From positions 464,627 to 528,626 of the forward strand of contig JAQTYF010000001.1 of assembly GCA_028688415.1 (NCBI GenBank): a stretch of DNA of 64,000 nt, in the 5' to 3' direction. Origin of the DNA: Candidatus Moraniibacteriota bacterium (GTDB lineage Bacteria > Patescibacteriota > Minisyncoccia > Moranbacterales > UBA1568). Both the position numbers and the translations under genes were made by a program. Positions 32,301-49,971 of this stretch are shown here, piece after piece. The first letter of the stretch is position 1, and every line of letters begins with the position of its first letter. The notes beneath the pieces are model-generated. The model was not told the DNA's origin and made no database searches. It saw only the letters and a list, made by a program, of their open reading frames with translations.

Positions 32301-34781
32301 ATGTTTGAAACGAATTTCAGCCAAAAATTGACACTCCACGCGAAACACAGTCTGAAAGAGGCTCGTGATATTGCTCGTTTCACCCGACACAACACGATAG
32401 AACCAGAACACCTCCTCATTGCTCTCTTTCTCGAACAGACGAGTCTCGGGAGCATACTTCTCGAAAATATGGGTTTCGAGAAAGAATCTCTTGCCAAACT
32501 CTGTTTCAAGAAAAAAACAGGCGGAAAAATACTTCCTGAATCAACCGTCATACCACTCTCTTCATCGGTCAAAGATATTCTTCGTCGTTCCTATGCTCTC
32601 GCCAATCAATTCCATTATCCCTATGTTGGTACGGAACACCTCGCTTTTGCCCTTTTTGAATCAGAAGAAAAAAATGCACTCGAAAAAATACTCGTGACAC
32701 TTCACATCAGTCGAGCCAAGATACAATCTACATTCAAAGCGCACCTCAATTTCGATCATTTTCCTCAACTCGCCAAAATGCTCGATCTTCCTGACAATCT
32801 CCTGACCAAACAAACCACTTCCAGAGGCCTCACTCCATTTCTCGATCAGTACGCTGTCGATATGGCCAAAGGGTCAGTCTATGCGAGCGATATCCTCATC
32901 GGACGAGAGAATGAGACTGACCGCATCATACAAATACTCACTCGGAAACAGAAGAACAACCCCCTCCTTATCGGTGAGCCAGGTGTCGGAAAGACAGCTC
33001 TCGTAGCCGCTCTCGCCAAGATGATCTCGTCTGGTGGTGCTCCTCATTCACTTCATGGCAAACGTATTCTCCTCCTCGACCTCACACTCGTCGTGGCAGG
33101 GACCAATTTCCGTGGCGAATTCGAATCGCGTCTCAAAGAAATCCTGCGTGAAGCAATGCAAAACAAAAACATCATTCTTTTCATCGATGAGATACATACG
33201 ATTGTCGGAGCGGGCAATACGAGCGGTGGCCTCGATGCAGCGAACATACTCAAACCTGCTCTCTCTCGTGGCGAAATCCAAGTGATAGGAGCGACCACTT
33301 TTGCTGAATACAAGCGTCATATCGAAAAAGATCCTGCGCTCGATCGTCGTTTTCAGTCTGTCATCGTCGCAGAACCAACCGTCGAAGAAACCAAAGAAAT
33401 TCTCTGGAATATCAAAAAAAGTTACGAGGACTTTCATCACATCGCTCTCTCAAAGGATGTGATCGATACCGCTGTCGATATGAGTGTTCGGTTCATCCCT
33501 GATCGTTTCTTGCCAGACAAAGCGCTCGATATCATCGATGAGGCATCTGCTCTCGCCAAGCAAAAACGTGAAGCTTCCGAAACTATCAAACTCTTGATGG
33601 AACTCGAGGAAGAACTCATCACCACAAAAGAACTCAAGGAATCACTCATCCAAGGTGAGAAATACGATGATGCTGGTAAGTGGCTCGCTCGAGAAAAAAC
33701 TCTTCAGAAAAAAATCGCTGGACTCCAAGTAGCACACAAACACCATCCAGAAAGTGAGCGTGTCGTAGTCACTCTCGAGCACATTCTCAAAACCGTCTCA
33801 CATATGGCACATATTCCTTTTGCGAAACTTGCCAAAGAAAATCCGCGCCAGAAACTCACTCATATACAGAAGGCTCTCGGACAATACCTCGTCGGTCAGG
33901 CAGAAGTGAGTCAGGCGCTCGAACAAACACTGACTCGATCACTTTCGAATATCGGTGACCCTGATCGTCCTCTTGGATCATTCCTCTTCCTTGGTCCTAC
34001 AGGAGTCGGCAAGACACTCACTGCCAAAATTCTCGCTCGGGAATTCTTCGGTGATGAAAACAATCTCATCCGTCTCGATATGAGCGAGTTTATGGAACGT
34101 CACAGTGTCGCACAGATTCTCGGTGCTCCCGCAGGATATATCGGGTATGGTGAAGGCGGAAAATTGACCGAACAAGTCCGTCGTAAACCCTATTCTGTCA
34201 TATTATTCGATGAAATCGAAAAAGCACATCCCGATATCTTCAATATTCTCCTTCAGATCTTAGACGAAGGGGTACTTACCGATGCCGAAGGACGCAAGGT
34301 GAGCTTCCGTAACACGCTTATTGTACTCACATCCAATATTGGTACGAGCTCTTTCACGCAGACCGCTCGTATCGGTTTTGCCAAGAATATCAATACTTCA
34401 GATCTCCACGAACAATTCGATTCAATCAAACGCGAGGTACTGAACACTCTCAAGAAAGAACTTCGTCCAGAACTCCTCGCTCGTCTCGACCACACGCTTG
34501 TGTTTAATGCCCTGAGTGAAAAAGCAGTCGAACAGGTTGTCGCTCTCGAACTCTCCTCACTTGTCAGACGACTCGAAAAACAAGGTATCACACTCACCTA
34601 TCCTCGATCGCTCGAACAGTATATTGCCAAGAAAAGCTTTGCGCCAGAACAAGGTGCTCGTCTCGTCAAGAAAAATATACAGGATATAGTAGAAAGAAGT
34701 ATTGCGACGAGACTCCTCGATATGCCTAACAAAAAAACACTTCGTCTTTCGTTGAAAAAAGATTCTGTTTTGTGCATCTAA
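32301..34781 (+). CDS. clpC: Clp/Hsp100 family AAA+ chaperone ATPase (ClpC/ClpB-like)
   Basis: Clp_N repeats and two AAA modules (GEPGVGKTA, GPTGVGKT); 826 aa. Confidence 0.85.
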   Translation: MFETNFSQKLTLHAKHSLKEARDIARFTRHNTIEPEHLLIALFLEQTSLGSILLENMGFEKESLAKLCFKKKTGGKILPESTVIPLSSSVKDILRRSYALANQFHYPYVGTEHLAFALFESEEKNALEKILVTLHISRAKIQSTFKAHLNFDHFPQLAKMLDLPDNLLTKQTTSRGLTPFLDQYAVDMAKGSVYASDILIGRENETDRIIQILTRKQKNNPLLIGEPGVGKTALVAALAKMISSGGAPHSLHGKRILLLDLTLVVAGTNFRGEFESRLKEILREAMQNKNIILFIDEIHTIVGAGNTSGGLDAANILKPALSRGEIQVIGATTFAEYKRHIEKDPALDRRFQSVIVAEPTVEETKEILWNIKKSYEDFHHIALSKDVIDTAVDMSVRFIPDRFLPDKALDIIDEASALAKQKREASETIKLLMELEEELITTKELKESLIQGEKYDDAGKWLAREKTLQKKIAGLQVAHKHHPESERVVVTLEHILKTVSHMAHIPFAKLAKENPRQKLTHIQKALGQYLVGQAEVSQALEQTLTRSLSNIGDPDRPLGSFLFLGPTGVGKTLTAKILAREFFGDENNLIRLDMSEFMERHSVAQILGAPAGYIGYGEGGKLTEQVRRKPYSVILFDEIEKAHPDIFNILLQILDEGVLTDAEGRKVSFRNTLIVLTSNIGTSSFTQTARIGFAKNINTSDLHEQFDSIKREVLNTLKKELRPELLARLDHTLVFNALSEKAVEQVVALELSSLVRRLEKQGITLTYPRSLEQYIAKKSFAPEQGARLVKKNIQDIVERSIATRLLDMPNKKTLRLSLKKDSVLCI

Positions 34782-35521
34782 CTATTGCTTCATTTTTTCG
34801 TTCTCCTGCCTTCAGGACATTCTGGGACTCGTGTCTCGATACATTCTTCCCTGTTTTTTGTCTGGGCTGTGGCGCATACGGGACTGCTCTCTGCGATCAC
34901 TGTCTCCAGATATTTCCCCGTCGACTAGAACAACGATGTCCGACATGTGTACGAAATACGACACCACGAGGAGAGGTCTGCTTCGACTGTGTCGGAAAAA
35001 GCGCTCTCGACGGACTCTTCGCTGGATCGATCTACCGATTTCCTCTTGTATCTCACACGCTTCATACGTTCAAATACCGATTTATTGCGCCTCTCGCCTC
35101 CTCGCTCGGTACCTGGCTCGCAGAGAGGGTACAAGAGACCAATCTTCCCCTCCCTGATGCCATCATCCCTGTCCCACTCCATCCCAGACGACTGCGATTT
35201 CGTGGGTTCAATCAGTCCCTCCTCATCGCAGAAGTACTCGCGGATACACTCACTCCGGGTCTCGATACTCTGGTACTCGCAAACGTATTGCTCCGCACCC
35301 GATATACCAAACCACAGATGAAGACGCAAAGTAAAGAAGAGCGTCAGGGTAATCTCACGGGAGCATTCACGATCGCCCCAGAATATACATCACTCATACA
35401 AGACAAATCCATCTGGCTCATCGATGATGTCTCGACAACAGGTACAACTCTCGAAGAATGTGCTCTCGTCCTCAAAAAATCTGGTGCCAAGAGTGTTTTC
35501 GGTATTGTTCTCGCACGCTAA
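34772..35521 (+). CDS. comFC: ComF family phosphoribosyltransferase-domain protein
   Basis: N-terminal Cys-rich zinc finger and C-terminal PRTase motif LIDDVSTTGTTL. Confidence 0.75.
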   Translation: MHLTIASFFRSPAFRTFWDSCLDTFFPVFCLGCGAYGTALCDHCLQIFPRRLEQRCPTCVRNTTPRGEVCFDCVGKSALDGLFAGSIYRFPLVSHTLHTFKYRFIAPLASSLGTWLAERVQETNLPLPDAIIPVPLHPRRLRFRGFNQSLLIAEVLADTLTPGLDTLVLANVLLRTRYTKPQMKTQSKEERQGNLTGAFTIAPEYTSLIQDKSIWLIDDVSTTGTTLEECALVLKKSGAKSVFGIVLAR

Positions 35522-35524
35522 AAC

Positions 35525-35559
35525 AAAAAAGTTACGTAATGAATTACGTAACTTTTTTT
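35525..35559. terminator. Bidirectional intrinsic terminator
   Basis: aaaaaagttacgtaat-gaa-ttacgtaactttttt: a perfect 13-bp stem flanked by A6 and T7. Confidence 0.7.
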
Positions 35560-35580
35560 ATGAGAGATTGAAAAGGAGAA

Positions 35581-36333
35581 CTAGTATTCGACGAAGTACT
35601 GAATTTTCGCTTTTTCTTTGAGATCATTCACCCATTTCTCTGCCTCTGTATTGAATTTTTGTCCTTTCAGTTGTTCGCGCACTTGATTCTTCATATCTTC
35701 TGAATTTGTTCCTTTCGGCAGAAGCGTCTTATTTTCTTCGAGATATGTGTTGATTTCTTCATCACTTACCGCCACTTTGTCCGCCAACACCTGCTCCAAT
35801 TGTTTACTGATGATGATCTGATCACGGAGCTCTGTCACTGTCATTCCTTGTGAAGCAAGTGCTTCTTCGAGTGTTCCTCCTTGTGTAGATACCTGATCTT
35901 CTATTTTCTTCATTTCTGCATCGATATCCGCATCACTCACCACGATTCCTGCTTTCTTGATTTCTCCATCAATAAGTTTCTTGGTGATCATCGTTTCCAC
36001 AATACTCTTTCCTGCCTTGCTTTCGAGTTCCTTCACGACACTGAGACGGCTGATCGGACTTCCATTGACTGTTGCTACGACAAATACTCCTCGATACATA
36101 TAGAAAGCAAGAGAAAACACAGCAAAGATAGCAATCACTACAACGAAACTCTTCGTCGTACGGCTCGTCCCTGCGACAAAGTCTTTCCATTCCTGCATTT
36201 TCATCACCAAAGTTTTTTTCGATTCCGAAGATTTTGTATCAAAACTTTCTTCCTCGATTCTTTCTGTTTTTGGTGTTTCTACCACTTCTGTTTCTGGTTT
36301 CTTTACTTCTTCTTTGATTGTTTCATTTTCCAT
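35581..36333 (-). CDS. SurA-N/PpiC-like chaperone domain protein (membrane anchored)
   Basis: N-terminal acidic low-complexity region, a TM helix, then a SurA_N-like helical domain. Confidence 0.45.
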   Translation of the reverse strand: MENETIKEEVKKPETEVVETPKTERIEEESFDTKSSESKKTLVMKMQEWKDFVAGTSRTTKSFVVVIAIFAVFSLAFYMYRGVFVVATVNGSPISRLSVVKELESKAGKSIVETMITKKLIDGEIKKAGIVVSDADIDAEMKKIEDQVSTQGGTLEEALASQGMTVTELRDQIIISKQLEQVLADKVAVSDEEINTYLEENKTLLPKGTNSEDMKNQVREQLKGQKFNTEAEKWVNDLKEKAKIQYFVEY

Positions 36334-36474
36334 AACCGTATCTGCTAAAAAAATTAATCTGATTTACTTAAAAAAAGAAAAGATAGCGTTTCTTCTTTGA
36401 TGTATTTTAGCATAAAATGAAAAAGGTGTCATTCAATAAAAATCAAGTCGCAAACGGTCTATGCTCAGCATTAT

Positions 36475-38346
36475 CTAACGAATATTGTCCAATAGTTGAT
36501 TAAAGTCTGTGCCAATCCATCGCTTTACCTCCTTCCCCTCGCTACCAAGAAGAATCAGTGTTGTTTGAAGGGTTACCTTATGCTTTATTTTCATTTCACG
36601 ATCCTTATCAAAATCAACCTTCACAACAATTACATCCTGAGGCAATTCATTCAAACGCTCACGGATTTCCTGGTCAAGAACGACACAATTCGAACACCAC
36701 GTCGTAGCAGCGAAGAAAAGCACTACTCTACCTGATTGCTTCGCAAAGACATACGACTCTGGTGAATAGTCCACATACTGCAGATGATTTGCGAAAACCT
36801 GATTCTTCAAATCTGGGCGCACAGCAGAGAGAGTGACGTCATCTTGTTCGATAGAAGCGGTATATAACACAAACACAAACCCGAAGACGATCACTCCAAG
36901 AGCTAATAATCGGGAAGTACGAGTTTGTTTCATATGAAAGAGAAATGCGAGAAGTTTCTTCGATTGATCAGTGAGTTTTCTGCTCATAAATTGGAGTGCG
37001 ATCGATCGGTTGATGCGTGTTGCAGTCGGATACGGATACACCTTATTCAAAAACTTCTTCAAACTTAGCTTATTCGCTTGAGCGAACATGAGCTCTTGCG
37101 TGAGTTCTCCTGCATTATGCGCTACCATCGTACCGCCCAGCACAATTCCTTTTCTAGAAACAAAAAGTTTCATCTTCCCCTGTACATATTCATCTACAAT
37201 CGCACGATCATCACTTAAGAAATCACTTTTCAAAACATCATAATCCACCGATCGTTCTCTTAAAGTCTTCTCATCGAGTCCAAAAGTGGCAATTTCCGGA
37301 CTCGTATACGTCACCCAGGCCATCGCATCGGCATTGAGTTTCTTCGGTATTGGAGAAAAAAAGTTTTTGATAATGAGCGACGCATGAAGCTCTGCTGCAT
37401 GGGTAAACATATGCCCTCCCGCCACATCACCACATACAAGAACACCTTTATTCGTCGTTCGTAAATATGAATCAACAATAAGTCCGCCTCGATCATTGAC
37501 TTCTATGCCAGCTGATTCGAGGTTCAGCCCATCGAGATTCAATTCTCGTCCGATAGAAACAAGCAGTGCATCTGCGAGGATTTCACGCGTTTCACCTACT
37601 TCATTACTCACCACGAGTACCTTGCCATCTTTCACTGCTTTTGGTCTATAGCCGAGCAAGAAATCCACTCCGTCTTTTTCAAGTCGTTCTCTCAGCACCG
37701 AAACCATCTCAGGATCTTCTTTATCGAGCAGACCTGATCCGACAACCGTTACTTTGGTTCCTAAAAGAGCGAGTGATTGTCCGAGTTCAATACCGATTGG
37801 ACCAGCGCCAATTACAACGAGTCTCTCTGGTAAAGTATTCAGTGAAAAAATAGTTTCATTCGTGAATACTTTCATCAATTCTATTCCAGGAATACTTAAT
37901 TGACGCGGACGAGATCCTGTCGCAAGGATAATTTTTTTACCACAATACTGTTTACCTGCAACTTCGATTGTTTCGCTGTCAACAAACTGCGCCTTCCCCA
38001 ATACAACAGTCATACCAAGCTTGCGAAAATGATCCGCGTTTTCATGTGTACGGATAGTTTCTTGTTTCTTAGAGACATACTCCATCACTTTCTTCACATC
38101 AATAGCTCCAGATATTGTGAGTCCAAACTTCTTAGCCTCTCTGCCATCATGTACCAATCGTGCAACATGTATCAGCGCTTTGGATGGCACACAACCGAAG
38201 TTCAAACAATCTCCTCCAATAGATCGGTCTTCTTTATCGACGAGCAGTACAGAGAATCCAACGCGATTCATAAATCCAGCGATATTGAGTCCACCTGAGC
38301 CAGCACCAATAACAATTACATCAAATGTATTAGAATTTTTTTTCAT
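36475..38346 (-). CDS. Class I pyridine nucleotide-disulfide oxidoreductase fused to a C-terminal TM segment and thioredoxin-like domain
   Basis: FAD site VIVIGAGSGG, redox disulfide GGDCLNFGCVPSK, a hydrophobic helix LLALGVIVFGFVFVLY, then the Trx motif ATTWCSNCVVL. Confidence 0.75.
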   Translation of the reverse strand: MKKNSNTFDVIVIGAGSGGLNIAGFMNRVGFSVLLVDKEDRSIGGDCLNFGCVPSKALIHVARLVHDGREAKKFGLTISGAIDVKKVMEYVSKKQETIRTHENADHFRKLGMTVVLGKAQFVDSETIEVAGKQYCGKKIILATGSRPRQLSIPGIELMKVFTNETIFSLNTLPERLVVIGAGPIGIELGQSLALLGTKVTVVGSGLLDKEDPEMVSVLRERLEKDGVDFLLGYRPKAVKDGKVLVVSNEVGETREILADALLVSIGRELNLDGLNLESAGIEVNDRGGLIVDSYLRTTNKGVLVCGDVAGGHMFTHAAELHASLIIKNFFSPIPKKLNADAMAWVTYTSPEIATFGLDEKTLRERSVDYDVLKSDFLSDDRAIVDEYVQGKMKLFVSRKGIVLGGTMVAHNAGELTQELMFAQANKLSLKKFLNKVYPYPTATRINRSIALQFMSRKLTDQSKKLLAFLFHMKQTRTSRLLALGVIVFGFVFVLYTASIEQDDVTLSAVRPDLKNQVFANHLQYVDYSPESYVFAKQSGRVVLFFAATTWCSNCVVLDQEIRERLNELPQDVIVVKVDFDKDREMKIKHKVTLQTTLILLGSEGKEVKRWIGTDFNQLLDNIR

Positions 38347-38956
38347 AAAATTTTCCTACGTAGGTTAATAAAACAATACCAATAAGAGCAAACAATACAT
38401 TTACTGGACTCAACATTCGAAGAGACTCTCCGAAATACACAAACAAAAATGTTCCCGGAATCATTCCAAAGAATGATCCTACGATGTACTGTTTCAAAGA
38501 AACGCTCGTCAAACCAAAAAGAAAATTTAAAACATTAAAAGGAAAGAGGGGTATGAGCCGAAGAGCAATAACCGTTGCAAGTGGCTTTCTTTCTAATCTT
38601 TCTTCATAGATTTTGAGAGTCGGATATTTGGCGAGAAGCATATTCTGCACATATTCTCTCAGAGTATATCGTGCCAAAAGAAAAGCGAGTGTCGCTCCCA
38701 AAGTATTGCCTACGAGCGCCGTGATGGTTCCGAGTAAATTGCCGAGCAATGAACCAGACAGAAGCGTGAGTGGCGTTCCAGGAAAACCAATGACAGCAAA
38801 CAGACCTTTTAATACAATAAGCGTACCAATTGTCATCATAATATTTCCAACACTCTGAGCTTCCAAATTTTTTACAAAAGACAACACTTCTATCCGATAC
38901 AGAAATGTCAGTAGTGAAAGCATGGCGACTACTATAATCAGTATAATCTTTTTCAT
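38330..38956 (-). CDS. DedA/TVP38 family membrane protein
   Basis: SNARE-associated-type core motif; 208 aa polytopic. Confidence 0.65.
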   Translation of the reverse strand: MKKIILIIVVAMLSLLTFLYRIEVLSFVKNLEAQSVGNIMMTIGTLIVLKGLFAVIGFPGTPLTLLSGSLLGNLLGTITALVGNTLGATLAFLLARYTLREYVQNMLLAKYPTLKIYEERLERKPLATVIALRLIPLFPFNVLNFLFGLTSVSLKQYIVGSFFGMIPGTFLFVYFGESLRMLSPVNVLFALIGIVLLTYVGKFYEKKF

Positions 38957-39600
38957 ATTTTCTTTTGAATAATTGATTGTCGTATCATATACACTACCAT
39001 CAGAAATGCGCCTATCTCGACGAGAACAATCATCTGAGAACCAATCGGAAGTGTACCTGCATAAGAAAAAAGAATCGCAAACGGAGTCACTCCTATCAAT
39101 GTAGAAAGAAAAAAGAGACGATGAGACAAGGATGAGAATAATCCGATACCATAAGAGAGCACATCAACAGGAACGATCATTCGAAGGAACACAATAGTCC
39201 AAAAAATATTTTTCTGAGAAAGTTGTTTCTCAAAATTTGTAATTTTCTCCAATGAAATAAACTTTTTCACAAACAAACGCCCATATCTTCGGGAGAGAAA
39301 AAAAGCAATTTGCGAACCCATAGTCCACCCGATGACAGAGAGTACGCTGGTTATTTGAAAGCCCCATACACTTACAGCAATCGGTATGAGAGGAAGCGTA
39401 GAGACTGGGGCGAACACGATAGCGAGTCCTGTAATGAAAACGTAGCTGACCATACCAAAAACTCCCTGATACTTTACAATATTTTGAATATCATTTTGAT
39501 ATGTCTGTGCAAATATGGTGGCTATAACGAAAAAAATCACAACAACAAGAAAACCAATTGTTGCACCGATTATTTTTTTATTGAAGAACTTCTCTAACAT
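38953..39600 (-). CDS. DedA/TVP38 family membrane protein (second paralog)
   Basis: 215 aa polytopic; tandem with the previous gene. Confidence 0.6.
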   Translation of the reverse strand: MLEKFFNKKIIGATIGFLVVVIFFVIATIFAQTYQNDIQNIVKYQGVFGMVSYVFITGLAIVFAPVSTLPLIPIAVSVWGFQITSVLSVIGWTMGSQIAFFLSRRYGRLFVKKFISLEKITNFEKQLSQKNIFWTIVFLRMIVPVDVLSYGIGLFSSLSHRLFFLSTLIGVTPFAILFSYAGTLPIGSQMIVLVEIGAFLMVVYMIRQSIIQKKI

Positions 39601-39650
39601 ATCCCTTCCCTATTATTTCCTATATTGTACCCTATCGACATTTCAACATT

Positions 39651-40367
39651 TCAACGGAGAAATTTAGTTTCGATTTGACTCACATCAAAATAACCCTGTT
39701 CGATAAGGAACGATTCCGCTTCTTTGTCCCATCCGAATATGATAGCCAATCCAACAAAAATAAGGATTCCTCCTAATATCTTCTTGAATTTTCCTTGCGG
39801 ATCAGAAGCCCATTTCATCTTACCAATCGCCCTCTGACCGAAAAACGCAACAAGTAGCAGTACCACCGAAAGACCAACTGCATACGCTATGAGATTAGCA
39901 ATCCCAACAGCAAAACTCTGTGGCAATACTATAGCAACTATCAGTGCGTATGTCGGACTACAGCTCGAAAAAACTGGACCGAGCGCCATACCAACCAATA
40001 CCCCGCCCCACCTCCCGCTGTGCTGATGCGAATCATGCAGAAGGTTTTGTGATCGATTACCAAAACCAAAAGCAGTCTCGATCTTCCCCCACAACTGAGG
40101 GAAGAACGTAACAAAACCAAAAACAAGAACAATGCCACCAGAAATTCCTTTCCAGACTTCCGGAGGCACAGCAATCAGAGCAGTACTCGACTTCAAAAGT
40201 AATGTAAAAAGAACAATCGATAGTGCGAGTGATCCTGTAACAATAAACGGTCTCAGACGATCACGATCTACCACTGATCCGCCGATAATCACAGGAAGTA
40301 CAGGGAGTACGCACGGTGCTAAAATTGTGAGTACTCCTGCTAGAAATGAGAAAAAAAGAATTTCCAT
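39651..40367 (-). CDS. ccdA: Cytochrome c-type biogenesis / thiol-disulfide transmembrane electron transfer protein CcdA (DsbD family)
   Basis: LAGVLTILAPCVLPVLPV with the second Cys in SSCSPTYALIV. Confidence 0.8.
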   Translation of the reverse strand: MEILFFSFLAGVLTILAPCVLPVLPVIIGGSVVDRDRLRPFIVTGSLALSIVLFTLLLKSSTALIAVPPEVWKGISGGIVLVFGFVTFFPQLWGKIETAFGFGNRSQNLLHDSHQHSGRWGGVLVGMALGPVFSSCSPTYALIVAIVLPQSFAVGIANLIAYAVGLSVVLLLVAFFGQRAIGKMKWASDPQGKFKKILGGILIFVGLAIIFGWDKEAESFLIEQGYFDVSQIETKFLR

Positions 40368-40368
40368 A

Positions 40369-40902
40369 TTATTCTATTTCACGTACAAGATCATTCAGTG
40401 TCACCGAGCCACCCCACTTCGCAATTTCTTTCCCGTCCGCATCGACTTGCACAATCGTGTGTTGCATCACAACGCCATATTTCTTTTTTAAATCAGTATA
40501 TTTGTCATAATCAACATCCAAGATAGTCACATTTGCCGGAATCTCATTTAGATGCGCACGAATATCAGCATCGAGAGCTTTACACGAAGGACACCAAGAT
40601 GCTCTGAAGAAGAGTGCTACTTTCCCGTCATTAGCCTTGACCAATTTGACTGGATCATACACTTCATATGAACCAACGCCTTGGTTCACTGTCTCTACTA
40701 CTGCTTCCGACTCTTCAGTTTCGATCACGACGCTTTGCTGATTTTCTTGTTTTACAACGTTTTTAATAGGAGTATTTTTTCTCGCAAGAAATATGTACCC
40801 ACCAGCTACTATCAGTACGAGTACTATTCCTACGAACATTTTATCATGTACACACATTCCTACTTTTTCTTGACACCCACTCATTGGACAAACTTTAGAC
40901 AT
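40369..40902 (-). CDS. Membrane-anchored thioredoxin-like protein (TlpA/ResA-like)
   Basis: N-terminal CPMSGC..C.H, a TM helix, and the Trx motif FFRASWCPSCK. The Trx domain is paralogous to the C-terminus of the 36475-38346 protein. Confidence 0.7.
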   Translation of the reverse strand: MSKVCPMSGCQEKVGMCVHDKMFVGIVLVLIVAGGYIFLARKNTPIKNVVKQENQQSVVIETEESEAVVETVNQGVGSYEVYDPVKLVKANDGKVALFFRASWCPSCKALDADIRAHLNEIPANVTILDVDYDKYTDLKKKYGVVMQHTIVQVDADGKEIAKWGGSVTLNDLVREIE

Positions 40903-40937
40903 ACTCTTTTATTTTAAAAAATTATTTATATTTTCAA

Positions 40938-41258
40938 TTATTTTTTATCAACTTTCAACAACTGCACCATTCGCTGTACCTCTTTTTCATCCTTGATTTC
41001 ATAACACACCATCTGCCCTGTCTTGACTCGATAGACAAGTCCAACTCGCTCAAGGATTTTGAGCTGTTGAGAAACTGCAGAAACAGTGATATCAAATATG
41101 GCTGCAACTTCAGTGACACAGAGTTCTTTATAATCCATCAGAAGACGGAAAATACGAAACCTGCCTGGATCGCCCAAAGCCTCGAAGATGAGCTGGGTAC
41201 GATTATCGTTTTTCGCCATTTCTTGCTTTACTCTCATCAATTCCTCTTTGGTTAACAT
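40938..41258 (-). CDS. ArsR/SmtB family transcriptional regulator
   Basis: wHTH EALGDPGRFRIFRLL...ELCVTEVAAIF...VSQQLKIL. Confidence 0.8.
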   Translation of the reverse strand: MLTKEELMRVKQEMAKNDNRTQLIFEALGDPGRFRIFRLLMDYKELCVTEVAAIFDITVSAVSQQLKILERVGLVYRVKTGQMVCYEIKDEKEVQRMVQLLKVDKK

Positions 41259-41370
41259 AACATTATATTAAGTATTTACTTAACTACTAAATATAATAAC
41301 AAAAAGGAAAAGAGCTGTCAAAAAAAATTTATTTGCTGAGGAAAGCGATCGAAAATTGAAAAGCAGTCAC

Positions 41371-41757
41371 TTACTTTTTTCTTGTTAGCTCTTCCGTACG
41401 AAAAATAATCATCTTTTTTATCAATGCATAAGGAATCGTTTTATTGAGCGGAAACTGAACCGAACCCTTTGCACTCTTATATATTGCTAATTCCTCCTTG
41501 AATGCTTCTATCCCTGATGGGGTCGGATAAAATCCAATATGACTGTCAAATGCGGAAAAATGTACGAGATTTTTTCCATTCAATTTGAATGTGGGAATAC
41601 CATAAGCAATCACTTCTTGTACGTCCGGTACTACTTCTCTGACGATAGCACGTATTTTTTGCAAAATAACTTGGATATCTTTCGGATATTTTGTGATGAA
41701 CGCATCGACACTTTCCATCTTTTCCATATTGTTCAATTTTTTACATTTTTGAAACAC
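41371..41757 (-). CDS. DUF1801 (YdhG-like) protein
   Basis: 128 aa with a YdhG-like pattern. Confidence 0.5.
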   Translation of the reverse strand: MFQKCKKLNNMEKMESVDAFITKYPKDIQVILQKIRAIVREVVPDVQEVIAYGIPTFKLNGKNLVHFSAFDSHIGFYPTPSGIEAFKEELAIYKSAKGSVQFPLNKTIPYALIKKMIIFRTEELTRKK

Positions 41758-41773
41758 AAAATAAAAAAACTCT

Positions 41774-42256
41774 TTACGGCTTATCCCTACCTACAAATCT
41801 TTCTTTGCCAAGCAAAAAATTTATTGCTCTTACTATATTTCTATCAAGACTCTTTTCTGTTTTTAAATTGCTCAAGTATCTGACTATTTCATGTTTCTTC
41901 GATGGAGATAAACTTTCAAAAACATTTTTTGCTTCAACGTTGCTACCGAGTGACTGAATAAATTTCTGTGGCGGAATAATTTCCCTACTTTCAGGATCAA
42001 ATGTGATCGTTAATTCTACAGTTTCACTGATCCGCTGAGGAGAATTTTTGAGCATCGTTGTGTTGATATAGAGTCTCCATTCACCAGCATATTTTACCAA
42101 AGTCTGCTTGTAGGGTTTTCCATTGATAGTTCCTTTGATAGGAATGTGTCCTCTCTCTTTTTTGGCTTGATCGAATATATCCTGCAAAATATCTTCAGGT
42201 ACGGAAACAAACGGATTCACTCCAATAATCTTTATTTCTGCTTTGAATTTTTTCAT
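41774..42256 (-). CDS. DUF1905 / YdeI-like protein
   Basis: 160 aa with a DUF1905-like N-terminus. Confidence 0.45.
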   Translation of the reverse strand: MKKFKAEIKIIGVNPFVSVPEDILQDIFDQAKKERGHIPIKGTINGKPYKQTLVKYAGEWRLYINTTMLKNSPQRISETVELTITFDPESREIIPPQKFIQSLGSNVEAKNVFESLSPSKKHEIVRYLSNLKTEKSLDRNIVRAINFLLGKERFVGRDKP

Positions 42257-42285
42257 ATCGTAGAGATTGCCGTCTTATTCCTTTT

Positions 42286-42810
42286 TTATTGTCTGGCCAA
42301 ATATCTAGCAGTATTCACATTTCTCACCGTCATAAACTGATAAAGTTTGTGGCTAATTATCTTATTCAGATGGCTCTTGTTATAATTTTTCCTATCAACA
42401 TTCCAAAAAATCGCCCCTTTGACATAACGGATGTCCATAAATTCTTTTTTGATTGGCAGATCATCTATGGTTTTCTTCGAATCAATTTCTGGGAATAGGT
42501 AAGCAATATCGGATCGCTGTGTGATATCATTTTTCCAGTTTTTTGGTATCGATTCGACTATCTGTATCATTTCCTTTTCTGTCTTGATAAGGATTGTGGC
42601 ATCAAAACCGAATTCTTTTTTAAAATTCAATTTCAGTTTTTTGCATATTTCTTGTTGTTTATCTTTCCCTTCAAAAATAACATTGCCTGAGTTTATATAG
42701 GTTGAAACGTTGTCATAGCCCAAAGATTCAAAAAGCACCTTAAGTTTTTTCATATCAACCCTGCGTTCTTTTCCGGCGTTTATTCCTCTGAGTAATGCAA
42801 TATATTTCAT
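42286..42810 (-). CDS. DUF1697 protein
   Basis: MKYIALLRGINAGKERRV N-terminus characteristic of DUF1697. Confidence 0.55.
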   Translation of the reverse strand: MKYIALLRGINAGKERRVDMKKLKVLFESLGYDNVSTYINSGNVIFEGKDKQQEICKKLKLNFKKEFGFDATILIKTEKEMIQIVESIPKNWKNDITQRSDIAYLFPEIDSKKTIDDLPIKKEFMDIRYVKGAIFWNVDRKNYNKSHLNKIISHKLYQFMTVRNVNTARYLARQ

Positions 42811-42821
42811 AATTTATTCCA

Positions 42822-44027
42822 TTAAATCATCGACACGTTTTTATAAGCACCCGATTGATACCTACGAGCTATATATAAATATAGCGGAAAAAGTATCACA
42901 AGGAAAATAATTCCTGAATATAAAAATCCGTATTGATAGGATACGCGCTCGATTATGAATCCAACTCCAAAACTTGAAACTACCGAAACAGCCTGATCAA
43001 TTTGTGAACCCGTTGACAACAATGTGGCCTTAAATTTACTTGATTTAATAATATCAAGTCGATAACCCTCATCAATTTTACTTAACCCCCAATGGAATGC
43101 GTTTATGATAATAAAAGCGGTTACAACAACCCACCAACTTGATATCATTCCCAAAACAAGAATTAAAAGAGTATAAATAACAAGTTGAAACCCATAAAAA
43201 GAAGGTAAGGTAAAATATTTTTTAATCTTTCCGCTATACGCAAGCATAAGCGAAGCAAATGCTCTCCCTATACCAAAGAATACCCCGAACCAAATTACAG
43301 GTATTTCAAGAAATGTCTGATAAGGGGCACGGAACCCTCCAATACTAAACAATGTTCCACCAATAATTCCCGAAAACAAAGCAATGCTAAAAAAGTTAAG
43401 GTGATATCCTTCTTGTAATACCTGTCTGAAATTTGTCGCCCCAATTTCTTCAATGTGTTCCTGAGGGACAGGAGGTACCACCAAGGAAATTGCTACCAAT
43501 AATCCAATCACATCAATAACAAAAGCAATCAGAAATGGTGTTTTGTAACTTATGCTCACTAAAAATGGTACCAGCACCATAAATATTATCGGCACCGCAA
43601 ATCCTATAGAACTGATTTTTCCCATCACTCTTGCATAGTCGTGTTCTCTTTTAAGACCTTGTAAAGTTTCGTGCATAAAGGCACTACCTGTACCACTTTG
43701 AAAAGCGGCACTCGCACTCAAAAAAATTGCGCCGAGTATCAAGAAGGAAATGTTATTCGCAAAAAGAAAAAAGACTGTTGACATCAACATCAATACTCGA
43801 GAAATAACTAGCGTTAGTTTATGTCCGATTTTATCAGACATATATCCGCTGGGAATTTCAAAAAGAAAACCAGAAAGACTCCCTGCAAGCAAAATTGTTC
43901 CAATTATTTTTGGTGTTACGTCTGGTATGGTCAGATAGTACGCTCCCAAAACCGCAACAAAAATTCTTTTATTGGCGATTAACAATATGGTGTATTTCCA
44001 AATATTACTTTGTAGATTTTTTTCCAT
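42822..44027 (-). CDS. MFS transporter
   Basis: 401 aa with about 12 TM segments. Confidence 0.7.
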   Translation of the reverse strand: MEKNLQSNIWKYTILLIANKRIFVAVLGAYYLTIPDVTPKIIGTILLAGSLSGFLFEIPSGYMSDKIGHKLTLVISRVLMLMSTVFFLFANNISFLILGAIFLSASAAFQSGTGSAFMHETLQGLKREHDYARVMGKISSIGFAVPIIFMVLVPFLVSISYKTPFLIAFVIDVIGLLVAISLVVPPVPQEHIEEIGATNFRQVLQEGYHLNFFSIALFSGIIGGTLFSIGGFRAPYQTFLEIPVIWFGVFFGIGRAFASLMLAYSGKIKKYFTLPSFYGFQLVIYTLLILVLGMISSWWVVVTAFIIINAFHWGLSKIDEGYRLDIIKSSKFKATLLSTGSQIDQAVSVVSSFGVGFIIERVSYQYGFLYSGIIFLVILFPLYLYIARRYQSGAYKNVSMI

Positions 44028-44029
44028 AT

Positions 44030-44100
44030 TTATTTCAATAATTCGCCAACTGATACTCCAAGCGTATTAGCTAGTTTTTCTATCGGGAAAGAAGATTCCA
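44030..44100 (-). pseudogene. Remnant of an XRE-family HTH gene C-terminus
   Basis: Encodes MESSFPIEKLANTLGVSVGELLK-stop, which resembles the C-terminus of the XRE protein at 49774-49971 (ISKALEVSVDELIK-stop). Confidence 0.35.
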
Positions 44101-44205
44101 TAGATTCTGTTCTTACTTTCACAGTCAGTATATAAACTTCTCACAAAACGGTCAAAGAAAAGGAAAAAAACCTCTTTGTAGAGATTTTTTCAGATTCGGG
44201 AATTC

Positions 44206-44278
44206 TTGGCGGGAATGCGTTTGTGTCGGCGCGAAGCTATGACCCCATTTCGGCTTCAGATTCCGATTTCCAATTTTG
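44206..44278. repeat. Diverged copy of the 116-bp unit found at 50328-50447 and 51853-51968
   Basis: About 60 percent identity, same orientation as the 51853-51968 copy, and contiguous with the left inverted repeat. Confidence 0.5.
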
Positions 44279-44500
44279 GCGGTGCATATTGGACGAAGTT
44301 CGAATGTATTTCGCCAAAAACCCTGAGTAAGAAAGCGGAAGCCGTCCCCACCGTAGTCCTGAAGCCTCGGGACTCCCCATCAGAAAAACCTTTCTTTGCA
44401 TTTCGGATTTGCGCGCGCCGGATCTTTTCTTCTCTTAAGGAAAAGAAAGCTTTTCTGATGAGGACTGCTCTTTGGAGCAGTGCGGTGGGGAACGGCTGCT
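44279..44500. repeat. Left arm of the 222-bp inverted repeat
   Basis: Reverse complement of 50108-50330 with a single mismatch (221/222). It is GC-rich relative to the surroundings. Confidence 0.9.
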
Positions 44501-44628
44501 ATTGGTACGTCGCCAAGATGGAAATAAACGAGCTTGTAGTTATTCTATCACATCAGACAATATTGAATTTGCTCATTTCTCCATCTTGGCGACGGTACCA
44601 TCCAAGTGAATGGTATTGCGATGACAAT

Positions 44629-45114
44629 TTATTTGCCGAGTTCAACTCGTCTTTTGATATATGAAGTTTGCTTCCTGTACGAGAACAAAAACATCACAAA
44701 AAGCACTGTAAGCAAAATATTTATGCTGTACTTTTCCAAAAATAGACATCGGTAGGAAAATAATTCGTACGCTTTTGCTACCATAAACAAGAAGAACATC
44801 GAAACGAAAGTACGGTACATGTTATTTGTCTCCGAAAATTCCTCAATTTTCGGATCCACTTTTGCGACAGCAACAAAATCAGAATACGACGCAAACTTAA
44901 GAAAGGAAATCCATTTCAAGATAGGCTCAATAGCCAAAGACCCAAACCTACTTATAACGAGACCAACGAAGTAGTAGACGAACGCTCCGATAACCAGATT
45001 TTCTTGTGTGAAAGAATAGGGTGTAAAGCGTTCCAACACTACAACGAAAAGAACACCAGGAAGTAGGTAGTTGAATAGATTATAGGACGTTATCTTGTCT
45101 AAAACTTTTTCCAT
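44629..45114 (-). CDS. Hypothetical 4-TM membrane protein
   Basis: Hydrophobic profile only. Confidence 0.4.
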   Translation of the reverse strand: MEKVLDKITSYNLFNYLLPGVLFVVVLERFTPYSFTQENLVIGAFVYYFVGLVISRFGSLAIEPILKWISFLKFASYSDFVAVAKVDPKIEEFSETNNMYRTFVSMFFLFMVAKAYELFSYRCLFLEKYSINILLTVLFVMFLFSYRKQTSYIKRRVELGK

Positions 45115-45117
45115 AAG

Positions 45118-46170
45118 TTACTCATCTACTTGATTAAAGAAGGTTTCCGGTGCGAGAGGCCCCCAACCATCTCTTTGTGGAGCATCTGCACTAGGATGAC
45201 AAATTGTTTTTCCGTTCCTTGTAGAGCCAGGATTGCAATTTCGACGTATAAGCGCATTGATTACCTTACGTGATGGATGTTTAGGATCGCCCTGTGGTGG
45301 ACACGAGATAAACGCATGAACCGGCATAAGTCGATTCAGTATAGTCGGCCCAAGATTACGTTTACTGCCATGATGTGGAACATCGAGGAAGTCTATTTTA
45401 TTCAAAGAGACATTATTTGCTTCCGCAAAATCAATAGCCCTGCCAAGTGCATCCTTTCCAGCGTCACCAGTAAAAAGGAATTTTTTTCCATCAACGACAA
45501 GCAGTAACACCAAACTGGAATTATTTTCGTGGCTTGTATCTAGGTAGTCGTCTGATAGGGTTTCGATATGCAGTTCCTCCGCGATCCAACCAACTGCCTC
45601 TTTCACCGCACCGATGAACTGTTCAATTTTGTGTTCATCCTTCACTTCTGGTGTCACACCGAAATTAGCAAGGAGTTGCTGGTAATACTCTTCGGTAGGT
45701 CCCAAAATATATAGCCCGTCATGCACCTGTTCTCCCGCGAATGGCTGAACGACCACTACACCCTTCTCAGTGGCCATATCAACGAGATCCGAGAGCATTG
45801 AAAGTGATTTCTCAAGTCGCGTCTCCAGACCCTTTTGTGTCACAGACATGTTCGTCATTTTCTGGATTGCTTTAGTGTAATCCCAAGGACAATGGGCAAC
45901 CAACTTACCGACGGTTAAGTTTTCGAAAACCTCTGAAAGACCAGAGATATGGTCGTTGTGAAGATGTGATGCAACAACAAGGTCAACATATGTCGTTCCA
46001 TAATGTATCTTGATGTGCTCGACAAGTGCCTTGCCCGAATCCTTTGTACCTCCATCTATAACTACAACATTCTGTGTTGTAGGCGAACTGAAATCTCCAT
46101 ACCGAATTGCGATTGCATCACCGCCTTTTTCTCCGATCCCAACTGGGATGTAATCAATCTCATATGCCAT
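45118..46170 (-). CDS. MBL-fold metallo-hydrolase (ComEC C-terminal domain-like)
   Basis: ASHLHNDHISGL (HxHxDH) and VPHHGSKRN motifs. Confidence 0.65.
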   Translation of the reverse strand: MAYEIDYIPVGIGEKGGDAIAIRYGDFSSPTTQNVVVIDGGTKDSGKALVEHIKIHYGTTYVDLVVASHLHNDHISGLSEVFENLTVGKLVAHCPWDYTKAIQKMTNMSVTQKGLETRLEKSLSMLSDLVDMATEKGVVVVQPFAGEQVHDGLYILGPTEEYYQQLLANFGVTPEVKDEHKIEQFIGAVKEAVGWIAEELHIETLSDDYLDTSHENNSSLVLLLVVDGKKFLFTGDAGKDALGRAIDFAEANNVSLNKIDFLDVPHHGSKRNLGPTILNRLMPVHAFISCPPQGDPKHPSRKVINALIRRNCNPGSTRNGKTICHPSADAPQRDGWGPLAPETFFNQVDE

Positions 46171-46245
46171 ATGTTTTTTGTATAATTTGAACTTGTTTAG
46201 GTTAACATTAGGTATTATAATTTAGGTATGGTATACTAGTCAAGT

Positions 46246-46854
46246 ATGAGAATAGAACAGCCATCAAAACGGCAGGCCGAAATACTTGAATTCGTATCTT
46301 TTTTTCGTCAAAAAAAAGGCTACGCCCCTTCTCTGACCGAAATAGCAGCGCATTTTGACGTGTCTGTGCCAACAGTACACCAACATATTGCGTATCTACG
46401 CAAGAAGAACCTTCTCTCGACCGAGAAGGGAAAACAAAGGTCTATACAAGCATTCAACGACCATAATCGTGGCGTCGTTGAAATTCCGCTTATGGGGATT
46501 ATTGCCGCAGGCGGACCGATTGAGGCCATCAGAGACCCTCGTCCTATAGAAGTTCCAAAAAGCATGCTTTCCGCAGGATCGGATTATTATGCCTTGAAAG
46601 TCGCGGGCGTAAGCATGATCGAAGACGGTATTTTTGACGGTGATATCGTTATCGTTCGGGATCAGCCAACGGTTGAAAACGGAGAAAAAGCAGTCGCTTA
46701 CCTACCAGATCAAGATGCGGTTACTCTAAAAAGAATCTATCACGAAAAAAATCGAATCAAACTTGTTCCCGCAAATCAAAAGATGGAACCTTTTTATGAG
46801 ACAAATGTAGAAATTCAAGGAAAGGTTGTTGGTGTGTTGAGAACTGAAAAATAA
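46246..46854 (+). CDS. lexA: LexA repressor (S24 peptidase family)
   Basis: N-terminal wHTH (LTEIAAHFDVSVPTVHQHIAYLRKKNLL), cleavage site AAG, and catalytic GVSM...K of the S24 domain. Confidence 0.8.
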   Translation: MRIEQPSKRQAEILEFVSFFRQKKGYAPSLTEIAAHFDVSVPTVHQHIAYLRKKNLLSTEKGKQRSIQAFNDHNRGVVEIPLMGIIAAGGPIEAIRDPRPIEVPKSMLSAGSDYYALKVAGVSMIEDGIFDGDIVIVRDQPTVENGEKAVAYLPDQDAVTLKRIYHEKNRIKLVPANQKMEPFYETNVEIQGKVVGVLRTEK

Positions 46855-46869
46855 GGCCAAAAAATATCC

Positions 46870-47745: not shown

Positions 47746-47964
47746 ATCGTATTAGTAGGTTACGCATATTTATTATATTGCGTAAGTTCCTTTTTCGAAA
47801 TCTTCCAAATAACTTTCAACTTCTTGAGGAAGTTTTGCAAAAATAGATCAAAGATCAGTCGAGAGCCGTCCTCGGCCAGATTATTATTTCTTCAGAAGCT
47901 TTCTGCATTTTCACACAAATTTATTGGACATATTTATAAAAATACAGCGCTATTACAAAACTTA

Positions 47965-48618: not shown

Positions 48619-48651
48619 ATGTTAAAAAATTTTAATAATTATTAATTGTTA

Positions 48652-49764: not shown

Positions 49765-49773
49765 AAATTTATT

Positions 49774-49971
49774 TTATTTGATTAACTCATCAACACTAAC
49801 CTCAAGCGCTTTAGAAATCTTCTTGAGCGTATCAAGTGTTGGATTTTGGTTTTTACCAACTTCAATCTTGATGATTGTGTTATTGGCAACATCAGCCAAT
49901 CGTGCCAGTTTTTCTTGTGATAATCCCTTGGCTTCTCGTAACTTCCTCAGATTTTTTGTTATATTTGACAT
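49774..49971 (-). CDS. XRE-family HTH transcriptional regulator
   Basis: LREAKGLSQEKLARLADVANNTIIKIEVGK, a classic Cro/C1 HTH; 65 aa. Confidence 0.75.
   Translation of the reverse strand: MSNITKNLRKLREAKGLSQEKLARLADVANNTIIKIEVGKNQNPTLDTLKKISKALEVSVDELIK

Follow-up and report, generated by a model that had tools for sequence, protein, structure and literature searches.

A probable ArsR-controlled envelope thiol-redox operon in a Moranbacteria genome, with a flavoprotein fused to a predicted extracytoplasmic thioredoxin domain

Gene content and organization

The window analysed here is a 64-kb stretch of a Candidatus Moraniibacteriota genome (contig JAQTYF010000001.1, positions 464,627 to 528,626). 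Within it, six tightly packed open reading frames (ORFs) on the minus strand, running from 41258 to 36475, encode an ArsR/SmtB-family regulator, a signal-anchored thioredoxin (Trx2), a CcdA-type transporter, two VTT/DedA membrane proteins (VTT_A and VTT_B), and a 623-aa protein in which a class I pyridine-nucleotide disulfide oxidoreductase (PNDR; a flavoprotein disulfide reductase) is joined through a membrane helix to a thioredoxin (Trx) domain (Table 1). The locus is probably a compact operon for envelope thiol redox, controlled by ArsR and assembled from familiar types of component. Its less ordinary aspects are the rare, membrane-straddling PNDR::Trx fusion, a Patescibacteria gene neighbourhood that is undescribed as far as we found, and a family of thioredoxins that lack the cis-proline. 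An earlier, sequence-only reading had reported the same six ORFs; the ORF coordinates were checked in the window and hold, Pfam and NCBIfam agree with all of its gene assignments, and every motif it quoted (CLNFGC, YPYPTATR, WCSNC, WCPSC and CPMSGCQEKVGMCVH) is present at its exact position. The pattern is not due to chance: the ORFs are long, the profile matches are strong, and the six deposited proteins, which come from two Candidatus Moranbacteria metagenome-assembled genomes (MAGs), have consecutive NCBI accessions; in one MAG they lie on a 939-kb contig.

Table 1. Features of the six-gene locus, in window coordinates
Feature	Position	Strand	Notes
Promoter-like site TTGACA-17 nt-TATTAT	41293..41321	-	Consensus match, upstream of the ArsR start codon
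Perfect 7-2-7 palindrome TTAAGTA-NN-TACTTAA	41268..41283	.	Candidate ArsR operator; between the -10 and the ArsR ATG
ArsR/SmtB-family regulator	40938-41258	-	106 aa; Pfam and NCBIfam profiles
Trx2, signal-anchored thioredoxin	40369-40902	-	177 aa; Pfam Thioredoxin 4.3e-12
Trx2 cytoplasmic Cys3His tail CPMSGCx6CxH	40846-40890	-	CPMSGCQEKVGMCVH, aa 5-19
Trx2 transmembrane helix	40783-40839	-	N-terminal anchor
Trx2 WCPSC	40582-40596	-	aa 103-107
Trx2 QHT replacing the cis-Pro loop	40456-40464	-	Alignment to solved thioredoxins
CcdA-type transmembrane thiol-disulfide transporter	39651-40367	-	238 aa; Pfam DsbD_TM 2.2e-07
CcdA Cys19 in APCVLP	40302-40319	-	Motif position
CcdA Cys136 in SSCSP	39954-39968	-	Motif position
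VTT_A, VTT/DedA (TVP38-type) membrane protein	38953-39600	-	215 aa; Pfam VTT_dom 7.9e-15
VTT_B, VTT/DedA membrane protein	38330-38956	-	208 aa; Pfam VTT_dom 5.7e-27
PNDR-TM-Trx fusion, full gene	36475-38346	-	623 aa; Pfam and motif positions
PNDR domain, aa 1-471	36934..38346	-	Pfam Pyr_redox_2 4.5e-59, Pyr_redox_dim 8.6e-21
PNDR redox-active CLNFGC, C47/C52	38191-38208	-	aa 47-52
PNDR YPYPTATR replacing the His-Glu dyad	37015-37038	-	aa 437-444
Fusion transmembrane helix, aa 479-499	36850..36912	-	RLLALGVIVFGFVFVLYTASI; mean Kyte-Doolittle 2.4
Fused Trx domain, aa 524-622 plus stop codon	36475..36777	-	Pfam Thioredoxin 3e-08
Fused Trx WCSNC	36685-36699	-	aa 550-554
Fused Trx QTT at the cis-Pro position	36559-36567	-	Alignment to solved thioredoxins

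This arrangement is most simply read as one operon led by ArsR. We infer co-transcription because the gaps between the genes are short (35, 1, 50, -4 and -17 bp, in order from ArsR to the fusion), because one strong promoter-like site lies upstream of ArsR, and because there is no credible internal terminator: two minus-strand terminator-like matches fall inside coding sequence, fewer than in shuffled sequences. The negative gaps are those around VTT_B, whose gene shares 4 nt with that of VTT_A and 17 nt with that of the PNDR. The promoter-like site, which is putative and identified as a consensus match only, agrees with the consensus at 11 of 12 positions, has a TG before the -10, and is the top-scoring site within 35400-42000. 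The palindrome may act as the ArsR operator. It has no other match in the 64-kb window, even with up to two mismatches, and 0.23 matches would be expected by chance.

The regulator matches winged-helix profiles of its family (Pfam HTH_5, 3.1e-13; NCBIfam ArsR/SmtB NF033788, 77.1 bits against a cutoff of 55). It has two cysteines, C47 in ELCV and C85 in the wing sequence VCYE, and the same pair is common to the ArsRs that lie beside VTT-PNDR or Trx-CcdA modules in six other genome loci (L002, L005, L016, L028, L029 and L038). The classical metal sites of the family are absent; ELCVTE retains only the first Cys of the alpha-3 CVC motif, and there is no His in the C-terminal helix (alpha-5). The sequence of this ArsR suggests that it resembles a two-Cys thiol switch more than a classical metal sensor.

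The flavoprotein-thioredoxin fusion

Where does the flavoprotein end and the thioredoxin begin? Unfused homologs of ~470 aa all end in ...KLTxxxKKLLRxLF(H/Y). The window PNDR, whose tail (...KKLLAFLFH) is typical of the family, reaches this natural end at LFH471, and the chain then continues with M472, basic residues, a transmembrane (TM) helix, a linker and the Trx domain. From aa 472 onward, the layout is that of a signal-anchored Trx such as Trx2, with the N-terminus inside and the C-terminus outside. The helix at aa 479-499 is the only strong hydrophobic segment on the Kyte-Doolittle scale apart from the NAD-binding Rossmann strand, and it has basic residues before it (M472-KQTRTSR) and acidic residues after it (EQDD), an orientation read by the positive-inside rule. 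In an AlphaFold2 model, the PNDR (block-mean pLDDT ~72-96, mostly >85) and a Trx fold at aa 524-622 (pLDDT ~80-87, this part of the model resting on only two aligned sequences) are separate domains; the residues between them form an isolated helix (476-499, block-mean pLDDT 40-58) and a disordered linker (500-520, pLDDT 26-32).

These observations bear on the topology of the protein. The sequence-only reading had taken the hydrophobic segment for a TM helix and had named a buried helix as the alternative. Its hydropathy and its unpacked position in the AlphaFold2 model point to a TM helix, and it is not a core helix of the PNDR because it lies beyond the end of every unfused PNDR. The PNDR is thus predicted to be cytoplasmic and the fused Trx to be extracytoplasmic. 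The earlier reading had argued that a single helix would place the two domains on opposite sides of the membrane, and this stands; it had also called the topology a puzzle, and this does not, because the junction is simply the end of the PNDR family followed by a signal-anchored Trx of the type found next to CcdA elsewhere. The single helix would be a tether rather than a wire: electrons need not pass through it, and CcdA is the obvious conduit.

The fusion probably arose through loss of the stop codon between a PNDR gene and a downstream, signal-anchored Trx gene. One Paceibacteria genome (L011) has the unfused order VTT-PNDR-(102 bp)-Trx-CcdA. Among standalone orthologs of the fused Trx, the nearest (homolog P0243) shares 47% identity, WCSNC, QTT and an N-terminal anchor, and its gene lies 1 bp upstream of a CcdA gene. 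The fusion is real and not an artefact, because an identical 623-aa protein is found in two MAGs and a Logan contig, and because the fusion is kept at 68% identity, with another junction (...LFRLEISG..., without Met), in a sister Moranbacteria lineage (L001, L003). It is also rare. A database search for the same architecture, which the sequence-only reading had proposed, found one 50%-identity cluster spanning the PNDR C-terminus and the Trx among 1.84 billion representatives, and PF00085 is present in only two of the top 120 PNDR homologs, the query itself and P0002.

The flavoprotein domain

The PNDR has the FAD motif GAGSGG, the NAD(P) motif GAGPIG and a dimerisation domain, and is a complete class I enzyme. 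The earlier reading had pointed out that the HPTxxE motif of dihydrolipoamide dehydrogenase reads YPYPTATR in this protein. Alignment to the lipoamide dehydrogenase structure 1dxl bears this out, with Y439 aligned to the catalytic His and R444 to the Glu, and both residues are invariant across homologs of the PNDR family. The closest solved structure is the mercuric reductase MerA (5x1y, 1e-63), and the PY(x)T of the PNDR aligns with PYLT of MerA. The top NCBIfam model is PRK06370.1-3 "FAD-containing oxidoreductase" (NF004991), which matches aa 5-473 with 419.7 bits and does not reach its cutoff of 620. Judged by this match, the PNDR is best described as PRK06370-like.

Assignment to better-known families fails in each case. 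As MerA, the PNDR scores 306.5 bits with TIGR02053, below the cutoff of 454.45, and the C-terminal Cys-Cys pair and the NmerA domain are absent. As a lipoamide dehydrogenase or glutathione reductase, it scores 327.1 bits with TIGR01350, below 408.8, and the His-Glu dyad is replaced. As a high-Mr thioredoxin reductase (TrxR) or thioredoxin-glutathione reductase, it scores 156 bits with TIGR01438, below 476, and the tail is Cys-free, with no mobile C-terminal redox motif. Indeed, the stretch of the fusion between aa 306 and 550 contains no Cys, and the tail ...KKLL.FLFH is Cys-free in all of the homologs examined. By these profile and motif comparisons, the PNDR lies outside any characterised family and is not MerA, dihydrolipoamide dehydrogenase or TrxR, because the dyad is replaced, the tail has no redox motif, and all NCBIfam equivalog scores are below cutoff.

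The cofactor is most likely NADPH, because G6PD and 6PGD are recurrent neighbours of the PNDR in related genomes (described below) and because the NAD(P) site, judged by sequence inspection only, lacks the acidic residue of NADH-specific lipoamide dehydrogenases. Two further ideas about this domain were considered and set aside. A membrane-surface amphipathic helix at the PNDR tail was rejected; the hydrophobic moment is moderate (0.34-0.68), and the window sequence lies at only the 75th percentile of shuffles. The proposal that the PNDR simply replaces TrxB is weakened by TrxB-like ORFs found near the PNDR in two related loci (L009 and L045).

The VTT/DedA proteins and the VTT-PNDR core

Both membrane proteins between CcdA and the fusion match the VTT domain PF09335 (95.1 and 55.8 bits against a gathering cutoff of 33.9), both are Cys-free, and they are 28% identical to one another over 102 aa. 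The UptA (COG0586) model gives a weak match to the window VTT sequence, with 25 bits against a cutoff of 250. VTT_B, the paralog proximal to the PNDR, has a close relative that forms the N-terminal domain of a VTT::PNDR fusion (P0003); VTT and PNDR are also fused in P0066, L038 and L066. In a comparison of 80 genome loci encoding the PNDR family, VTT is adjacent to PNDR (usually overlapping) or fused to it in 21 of 29 Patescibacteria loci and in 15 of 27 other loci outside Bacteroidota, a group that includes archaea-labelled MAGs and Dadabacteria. Among the Bacteroidota loci compared, none had a VTT gene detected beside the PNDR. VTT-PNDR is an evolutionarily conserved core, and the DedA genes are not incidental to the operon.

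The pairing itself has been reported before. The commonest fusion partners of DedA proteins of the TVP38-type COG0398 are PF07992 and PF02852 domains, with no function assigned (Todor et al. 2023, PMC10127716). Our literature search found no paper that gives the DedA-PNDR pair a function or that describes the Patescibacteria neighbourhood set out below.

Archaea-labelled MAGs, including those assigned to Woesearchaeota and Pacearchaeota, also carry members of this PNDR family (49-57% identity), in most cases beside a VTT gene (L014, L015, L024, L025, L030, L034-L037, L039, L042, L051, L053, L055, L056, L074 and L077). This suggests either exchange between episymbiotic CPR and DPANN organisms or mislabelled bins.

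CcdA and two thioredoxins without cis-proline

The CcdA protein matches DsbD_TM with 30.9 bits (cutoff 27.1), has one Cys in each membrane half (C19 and C136), as expected of a CcdA/DsbD core, and aligns over its whole length to the solved CcdA structure 5vkv (E 7e-4). The gene for Trx2, which has an N-terminal TM anchor and is predicted to be extracytoplasmic, lies 1 bp upstream of the CcdA gene, and the same Trx-CcdA gene pairing is found in seven other lineages (L005, L008, L011, L028, L046, L059 and L085). Hence, a Trx partner is encoded with CcdA, as in the CcdA-Etrx-MsrAB systems discussed below.

The sequence-only reading regarded the domain of Trx2 and the C-terminal domain of the fusion as paralogous, and their identity of ~38% over ~100 aa agrees with this. 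Both have the WCxxC motif of classical thioredoxins (WCPSC and WCSNC). Neither has the cis-Pro that faces CxxC at the start of beta-3; the residue is His in Trx2 and Thr in the fused domain. There is no Pro at this position in any of 315 homologous Trx domains (0/121 and 0/194); throughout this Trx family the residue found there is His, Thr, Ser or Asp, with QHT in 118 of 121 close homologs. The cis-proline is more conserved in the Trx fold than CxxC itself, and its loss has been linked to binding of metal or Fe-S by CxxC proteins of this fold (PMC2757866, citing Su 2007). A large Trx family without cis-proline challenges a near-universal rule of the fold. Many members of this family are tandem two- or three-domain proteins (homologs P0121-P0389).

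Trx2 also has a short N-terminal tail, C-x4-C-x6-C-x-H, just before its anchor. The tail could be a Cys3His metal or redox knuckle. It is kept in close Moranbacteria homologs (P0122-P0124 and P0132), and other homologs have variants of it, CGVxGCxxxCKHG and shorter forms.

Gene neighbourhoods in related genomes

What surrounds the VTT-PNDR core in other Patescibacteria? For 31 Patescibacteria loci, neighbours up to 10 kb away from the PNDR were counted, with examples verified by Pfam. G6PD/6PGD genes are found in 12 of the 31 loci, MsrA-MsrB (methionine-sulfoxide reductase) in 11, of which 8 are full-length with a clear N-terminal TM anchor, and CcdA in 11. DUF3179 proteins with a CPLC motif and QHT-type Trx each occur in 8 loci, ArsR in 7 and TlpA/redoxin-like proteins in 5. 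At least one counted neighbour other than ArsR is present in 24 of the 31 loci; by our own estimate, the chance expectation is ~2% per family, for a single-copy gene and a random 20-kb span of a 1-Mb genome. The usual order on one strand is [ArsR]-Trx-CcdA-(TlpA, DUF3179, MsrAB or G6PD-6PGD)-VTT-PNDR. Anchored MsrAB directly abuts VTT-PNDR in at least nine loci, and in at least three loci with full flanks (L018, L020 and L072) it does so with no CcdA or Trx within 10 kb; L057 is similar with a shorter flank.

Several of these genes are also fused to one another. For example, CcdA is fused to MsrA-MsrB (L046, 7377-9320), to DUF3179 (L005, 4527-6176) and to a TlpA/redoxin-like domain (L011, 12176-13555), DM13 is fused to MsrA-MsrB (L059, 2004-3590), and G6PD is fused to 6PGD (L005, 6399-8765). 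Because they are fused to CcdA or MsrAB in relatives, DUF3179 (CPLC) and DM13 are likely to be clients or partners of an envelope reducing pathway. Taken together, the Patescibacteria loci place VTT-PNDR in one neighbourhood with CcdA/Trx, anchored MsrAB, DUF3179 and G6PD/6PGD, an association that appears to be new.

The sister lineage that shares the PNDR::Trx fusion has the most extensive arrangement, a co-directional array of ~20 kb on a 28-kb contig (L085, 6008-16534, and L001, 1-11854). In order, the array encodes an anchored MsrAB, a two-Cys ArsR, a 79-aa glutaredoxin (Grx)-like protein (CSFC), Trx2 with the CPMSGC tail and CcdA; then a 208-aa protein without a Pfam match, TAL, a 311-aa protein, RpiB, RPE and DUF3179; and finally G6PD, 6PGD, TKT, 6PGL, VTT, VTT and PNDR::Trx. 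The window operon corresponds to both ends of this array, joined over a 50-bp gap. The pentose-phosphate block of the array is absent from the whole 64-kb window, and motif and phmmer scans of the window found no TrxB or DM13. A small, cytoplasmic Grx-like gene beside ArsR/Trx/CcdA is shared by L085, L086, L087, L088 and L002 and is absent from the window.

The sequence around the window operon has features of its own. Directly downstream is a gene (35581-36333, minus strand) for a membrane-anchored SurA-N/PpiC-like chaperone, another extracytoplasmic protein-quality-control function; it has its own promoter-like site (36432-36404). Beyond it, on the opposite strand, are a ComF-like gene (34772-35521, by sequence inspection only) and a ClpC-like gene (32301-34781). 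The operon is slightly AT-rich (G+C 0.38-0.39), and in 42001-50000 the G+C drops from ~0.43 to 0.35-0.37, and to 0.30 at 48001-50000. This low-G+C flanking region may be variable or acquired DNA.

Proposed function and alternative explanations

What does the operon do? The explanation that we favour, and consider reasonably probable, is that ArsR controls the six genes as one operon, which serves to maintain thiol redox and to repair oxidative damage outside the cytoplasmic membrane of Moranbacteria and is built from two modules that the fusion joins. The first module would be a CcdA relay that carries reducing equivalents across the membrane to a signal-anchored Trx on the outer face. CcdA would have two paralogous clients, Trx2 and the Trx domain of the 623-aa protein. 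The second module would be the widespread pair of TVP38-type VTT/DedA proteins together with the cytoplasmic class I flavoprotein disulfide reductase. In the fused protein, a PNDR dimer would lie on the cytoplasmic face, with one helix across the membrane and Trx outside. The PNDR, most likely using NADPH, would be the cytoplasmic input of reducing power and would act at the membrane with the VTT proteins. On the outer face, the Trx domains would reduce proteins of the cell surface, for example the anchored MsrAB and DUF3179 that relatives encode in their clusters. Synteny and the fusion are the reasons for assigning VTT-PNDR to the envelope redox system and for supposing that it draws on NADPH. 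How electrons might leave Cys47/Cys52 of the PNDR can be pictured in two ways. A small cytoplasmic redoxin, like the Grx-like protein of relatives, could pass them to CcdA; alternatively, a small or lipid thiol could be moved by the Cys-free VTT proteins.

The theme of reducing power delivered to the cell surface, already raised by the sequence-only reading, is strongly reinforced by the relatives, which place the same components with anchored MsrAB, DUF3179, TlpA-like redoxins and G6PD/6PGD. Several observations weigh against the explanation as a whole. First, C47/C52 is the only invariant Cys pair of the PNDR, which has no flexible C-terminal Cys/Sec motif. By analogy with known class I enzymes (glutathione reductase, dihydrolipoamide dehydrogenase, high-Mr TrxR and MerA), a PNDR that lacks such a protein-directed arm is unlikely to reduce CcdA directly. 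Second, VTT-PNDR is also encoded in archaea-labelled MAGs and Dadabacteria where none of CcdA, Trx and Msr is close by, and Bacteroidota have the PNDR with no VTT detected. Third, given the TrxB-like genes near the PNDR in the two related Patescibacteria loci L009 and L045, a canonical Trx system could feed CcdA, and the job of the PNDR could be unrelated. Fourth, both Trx domains lack the cis-Pro and so may not act as ordinary reductases. Fifth, no MsrA/B, Grx, DUF3179 or G6PD was found by motif and phmmer scans of the 64-kb window. Sixth, co-transcription is a reading of the sequence. The earlier suggestion that the pathway is "self-contained" is not supported: the PNDR has no third redox centre for CcdA, L009 and L045 have TrxB-like genes in the vicinity of the PNDR, and the Grx-like gene of relatives is absent here.

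The main rival explanation is that two independent modules share a locus and a regulator. CcdA and both Trx domains would be fed by an ordinary TrxB/TrxA or Grx-like system. VTT-VTT-PNDR would detoxify a membrane-permeant oxidant or metalloid, or would handle a lipid or small disulfide with DedA, and PNDR::Trx would be a tolerated stop-loss accident that tethers two co-expressed proteins. The autonomy of VTT-PNDR in many lineages, with no CcdA, Trx or Msr nearby, fits this explanation well, as do the absence of a protein-directed redox tail on the PNDR, the TrxB-like genes in L009 and L045, and the limitation of the fusion to one 50%-identity cluster. However, an accident would not be expected to be kept across lineages that differ to the extent of 68% identity. 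Nor would independent modules be expected to lie co-directionally with CcdA/Trx, anchored MsrAB or G6PD/6PGD in 24 of 31 loci, against the estimated ~2% per family, or to have anchored MsrAB directly abutting VTT-PNDR in at least nine loci. We regard this explanation as a serious one that is nonetheless doubtful.

A second possibility goes further than the favoured explanation: VTT/DedA-PNDR might be a transmembrane reducing system of its own, parallel to CcdA. The NADPH-dependent PNDR would reduce a small or lipid-linked disulfide on the cytoplasmic side, and DedA would carry the reduced form to the outer leaflet or the surface, to supply the Trx domains without cis-Pro and the anchored MsrAB. 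This would explain why MsrAB abuts VTT-PNDR in loci without CcdA or Trx and why the PNDR is fused to an exported Trx. If true, the enigmatic DedA proteins of COG0398 would gain a function as redox shuttles, and for now we think it unlikely.

A third possibility is metal or metalloid handling related to mercury resistance, in which ArsR senses, Trx and the Cys3His tail bind, CcdA or VTT moves the metal, and the PNDR reduces it. MerA 5x1y is the best solved-structure match (1e-63), with PY(x)T against PYLT and Tyr in place of His; the regulator is of the ArsR/SmtB type; Trx2 has a Cys-rich tail; and cis-Pro loss has been linked to metal binding at the CxxC of Trx-fold proteins (PMC2757866, citing Su 2007). 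All the same, the PNDR lacks the C-terminal Cys pair and NmerA and falls short of the MerA NCBIfam cutoff (306 against 454), ArsR lacks the CVC and alpha-5 His ligands, and the recurrent neighbours are Msr, pentose-phosphate and redoxin genes rather than metal transporters or chaperones. Metal handling is improbable on this evidence.

The last two possibilities concern the fusion itself. If the hydrophobic segment were not a membrane helix, the PNDR could directly reduce its own Trx in the cytoplasm, as a soluble fusion like NTRC. There is a superficial likeness to natural TrxR-Trx fusions, which include NTRC and a protein of Mycobacterium leprae. This explanation is very hard to sustain for a segment with a Kyte-Doolittle mean of 2.4 that lies past the end of all unfused PNDRs, with an unpacked helix and a disordered linker in the AlphaFold2 model, for a Trx whose standalone orthologs share the N-terminal anchor and adjoin CcdA, and for a PNDR that is class I, not a low-Mr TrxR, and has no redox centre in its tail. 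Least credible of all is that an assembly or sequencing error produced the fusion, or that the fusion is irrelevant because Trx is translated separately from M472: there is an in-frame ATG at the junction, exactly where a separate gene would be expected to start, but no recognisable ribosome-binding site precedes it, the L001 and L003 fusions have no Met at their junction, and the identical protein is found in two MAGs and a Logan contig.

Comparison with known systems

One of the closest parallels is surface repair by CcdA-Etrx-MsrAB in Streptococcus pneumoniae, S. gordonii and Fusobacterium nucleatum, in which CcdA passes reducing equivalents on to thioredoxins outside the membrane and these in turn serve targets at the cell surface (PMC3914529, PMC7034828, PMC9239216). 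The window operon likewise has a CcdA conduit and an anchored, predicted extracytoplasmic Trx in one regulated locus, and the Patescibacteria relatives add anchored MsrAB. It differs in that no MsrAB target is found in the operon or elsewhere in the 64-kb window, in that its Trx domains lack the cis-Pro and one of them is fused to a cytoplasmic flavoprotein, and in that the unit includes two DedA proteins and a class I PNDR. Its regulator is of the ArsR type and not a two-component system.

The fusion has parallels of a different kind. As in DsbD, a membrane redox component and an extracytoplasmic Trx fold are combined in one polypeptide in this family of loci, with relatives fusing CcdA to MsrAB, DUF3179 or a TlpA-like domain. 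In the window, unlike DsbD, the Trx is fused via a single helix to a cytoplasmic flavoenzyme and not to a thiol-transporting membrane core; therefore, the fusion partner cannot itself pass electrons across the membrane. Like NTRC, TrxR-Trx and thioredoxin-glutathione reductase, the window protein has a pyridine-nucleotide reductase and a Trx fold in one chain. These three kinds of protein are soluble and lie in one compartment, with a defined electron path between domains, whereas the window fusion is split by a membrane helix. Its reductase is class I with a dimerisation domain, not a low-Mr enzyme with CATC, and the linker holds the TM helix. The PNDR resembles MerA in its class I fold, in the CxxxxC next to FAD (CLNFGC) and in having Tyr for the catalytic His in the C-terminal loop. 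It differs from MerA in lacking the C-terminal Cys-Cys and NmerA, and in having Arg where MerA keeps Glu.

Another precedent is the pairing of COG0398 DedA proteins with oxidoreductases. DedA/VTT proteins are nearly universal, and the COG0398 branch is most often fused to a PNDR-type flavoprotein without an assigned function (PMC10127716). Consistent with that report, VTT_B overlaps the PNDR gene in the window, and relatives fuse the two; unlike in that report, the window has two VTT paralogs and a PNDR with an extra C-terminal TM-Trx. The published note on the pairing assigns it no function and does not connect it with CcdA, Trx, Msr or the pentose-phosphate pathway (PMC10127716). The Patescibacteria neighbourhood gives the DedA-PNDR pair a redox and repair context, and this context is concrete and testable: NADPH-generating enzymes, CcdA, exported Trx and a surface methionine-sulfoxide reductase. 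If the flavoenzyme feeds the envelope redox system, it would represent a new input route for extracytoplasmic reduction and would open a first way into the function of the DedA-PNDR pairing. Otherwise, the locus is still a compact oxidative-stress island in minimal-genome organisms.

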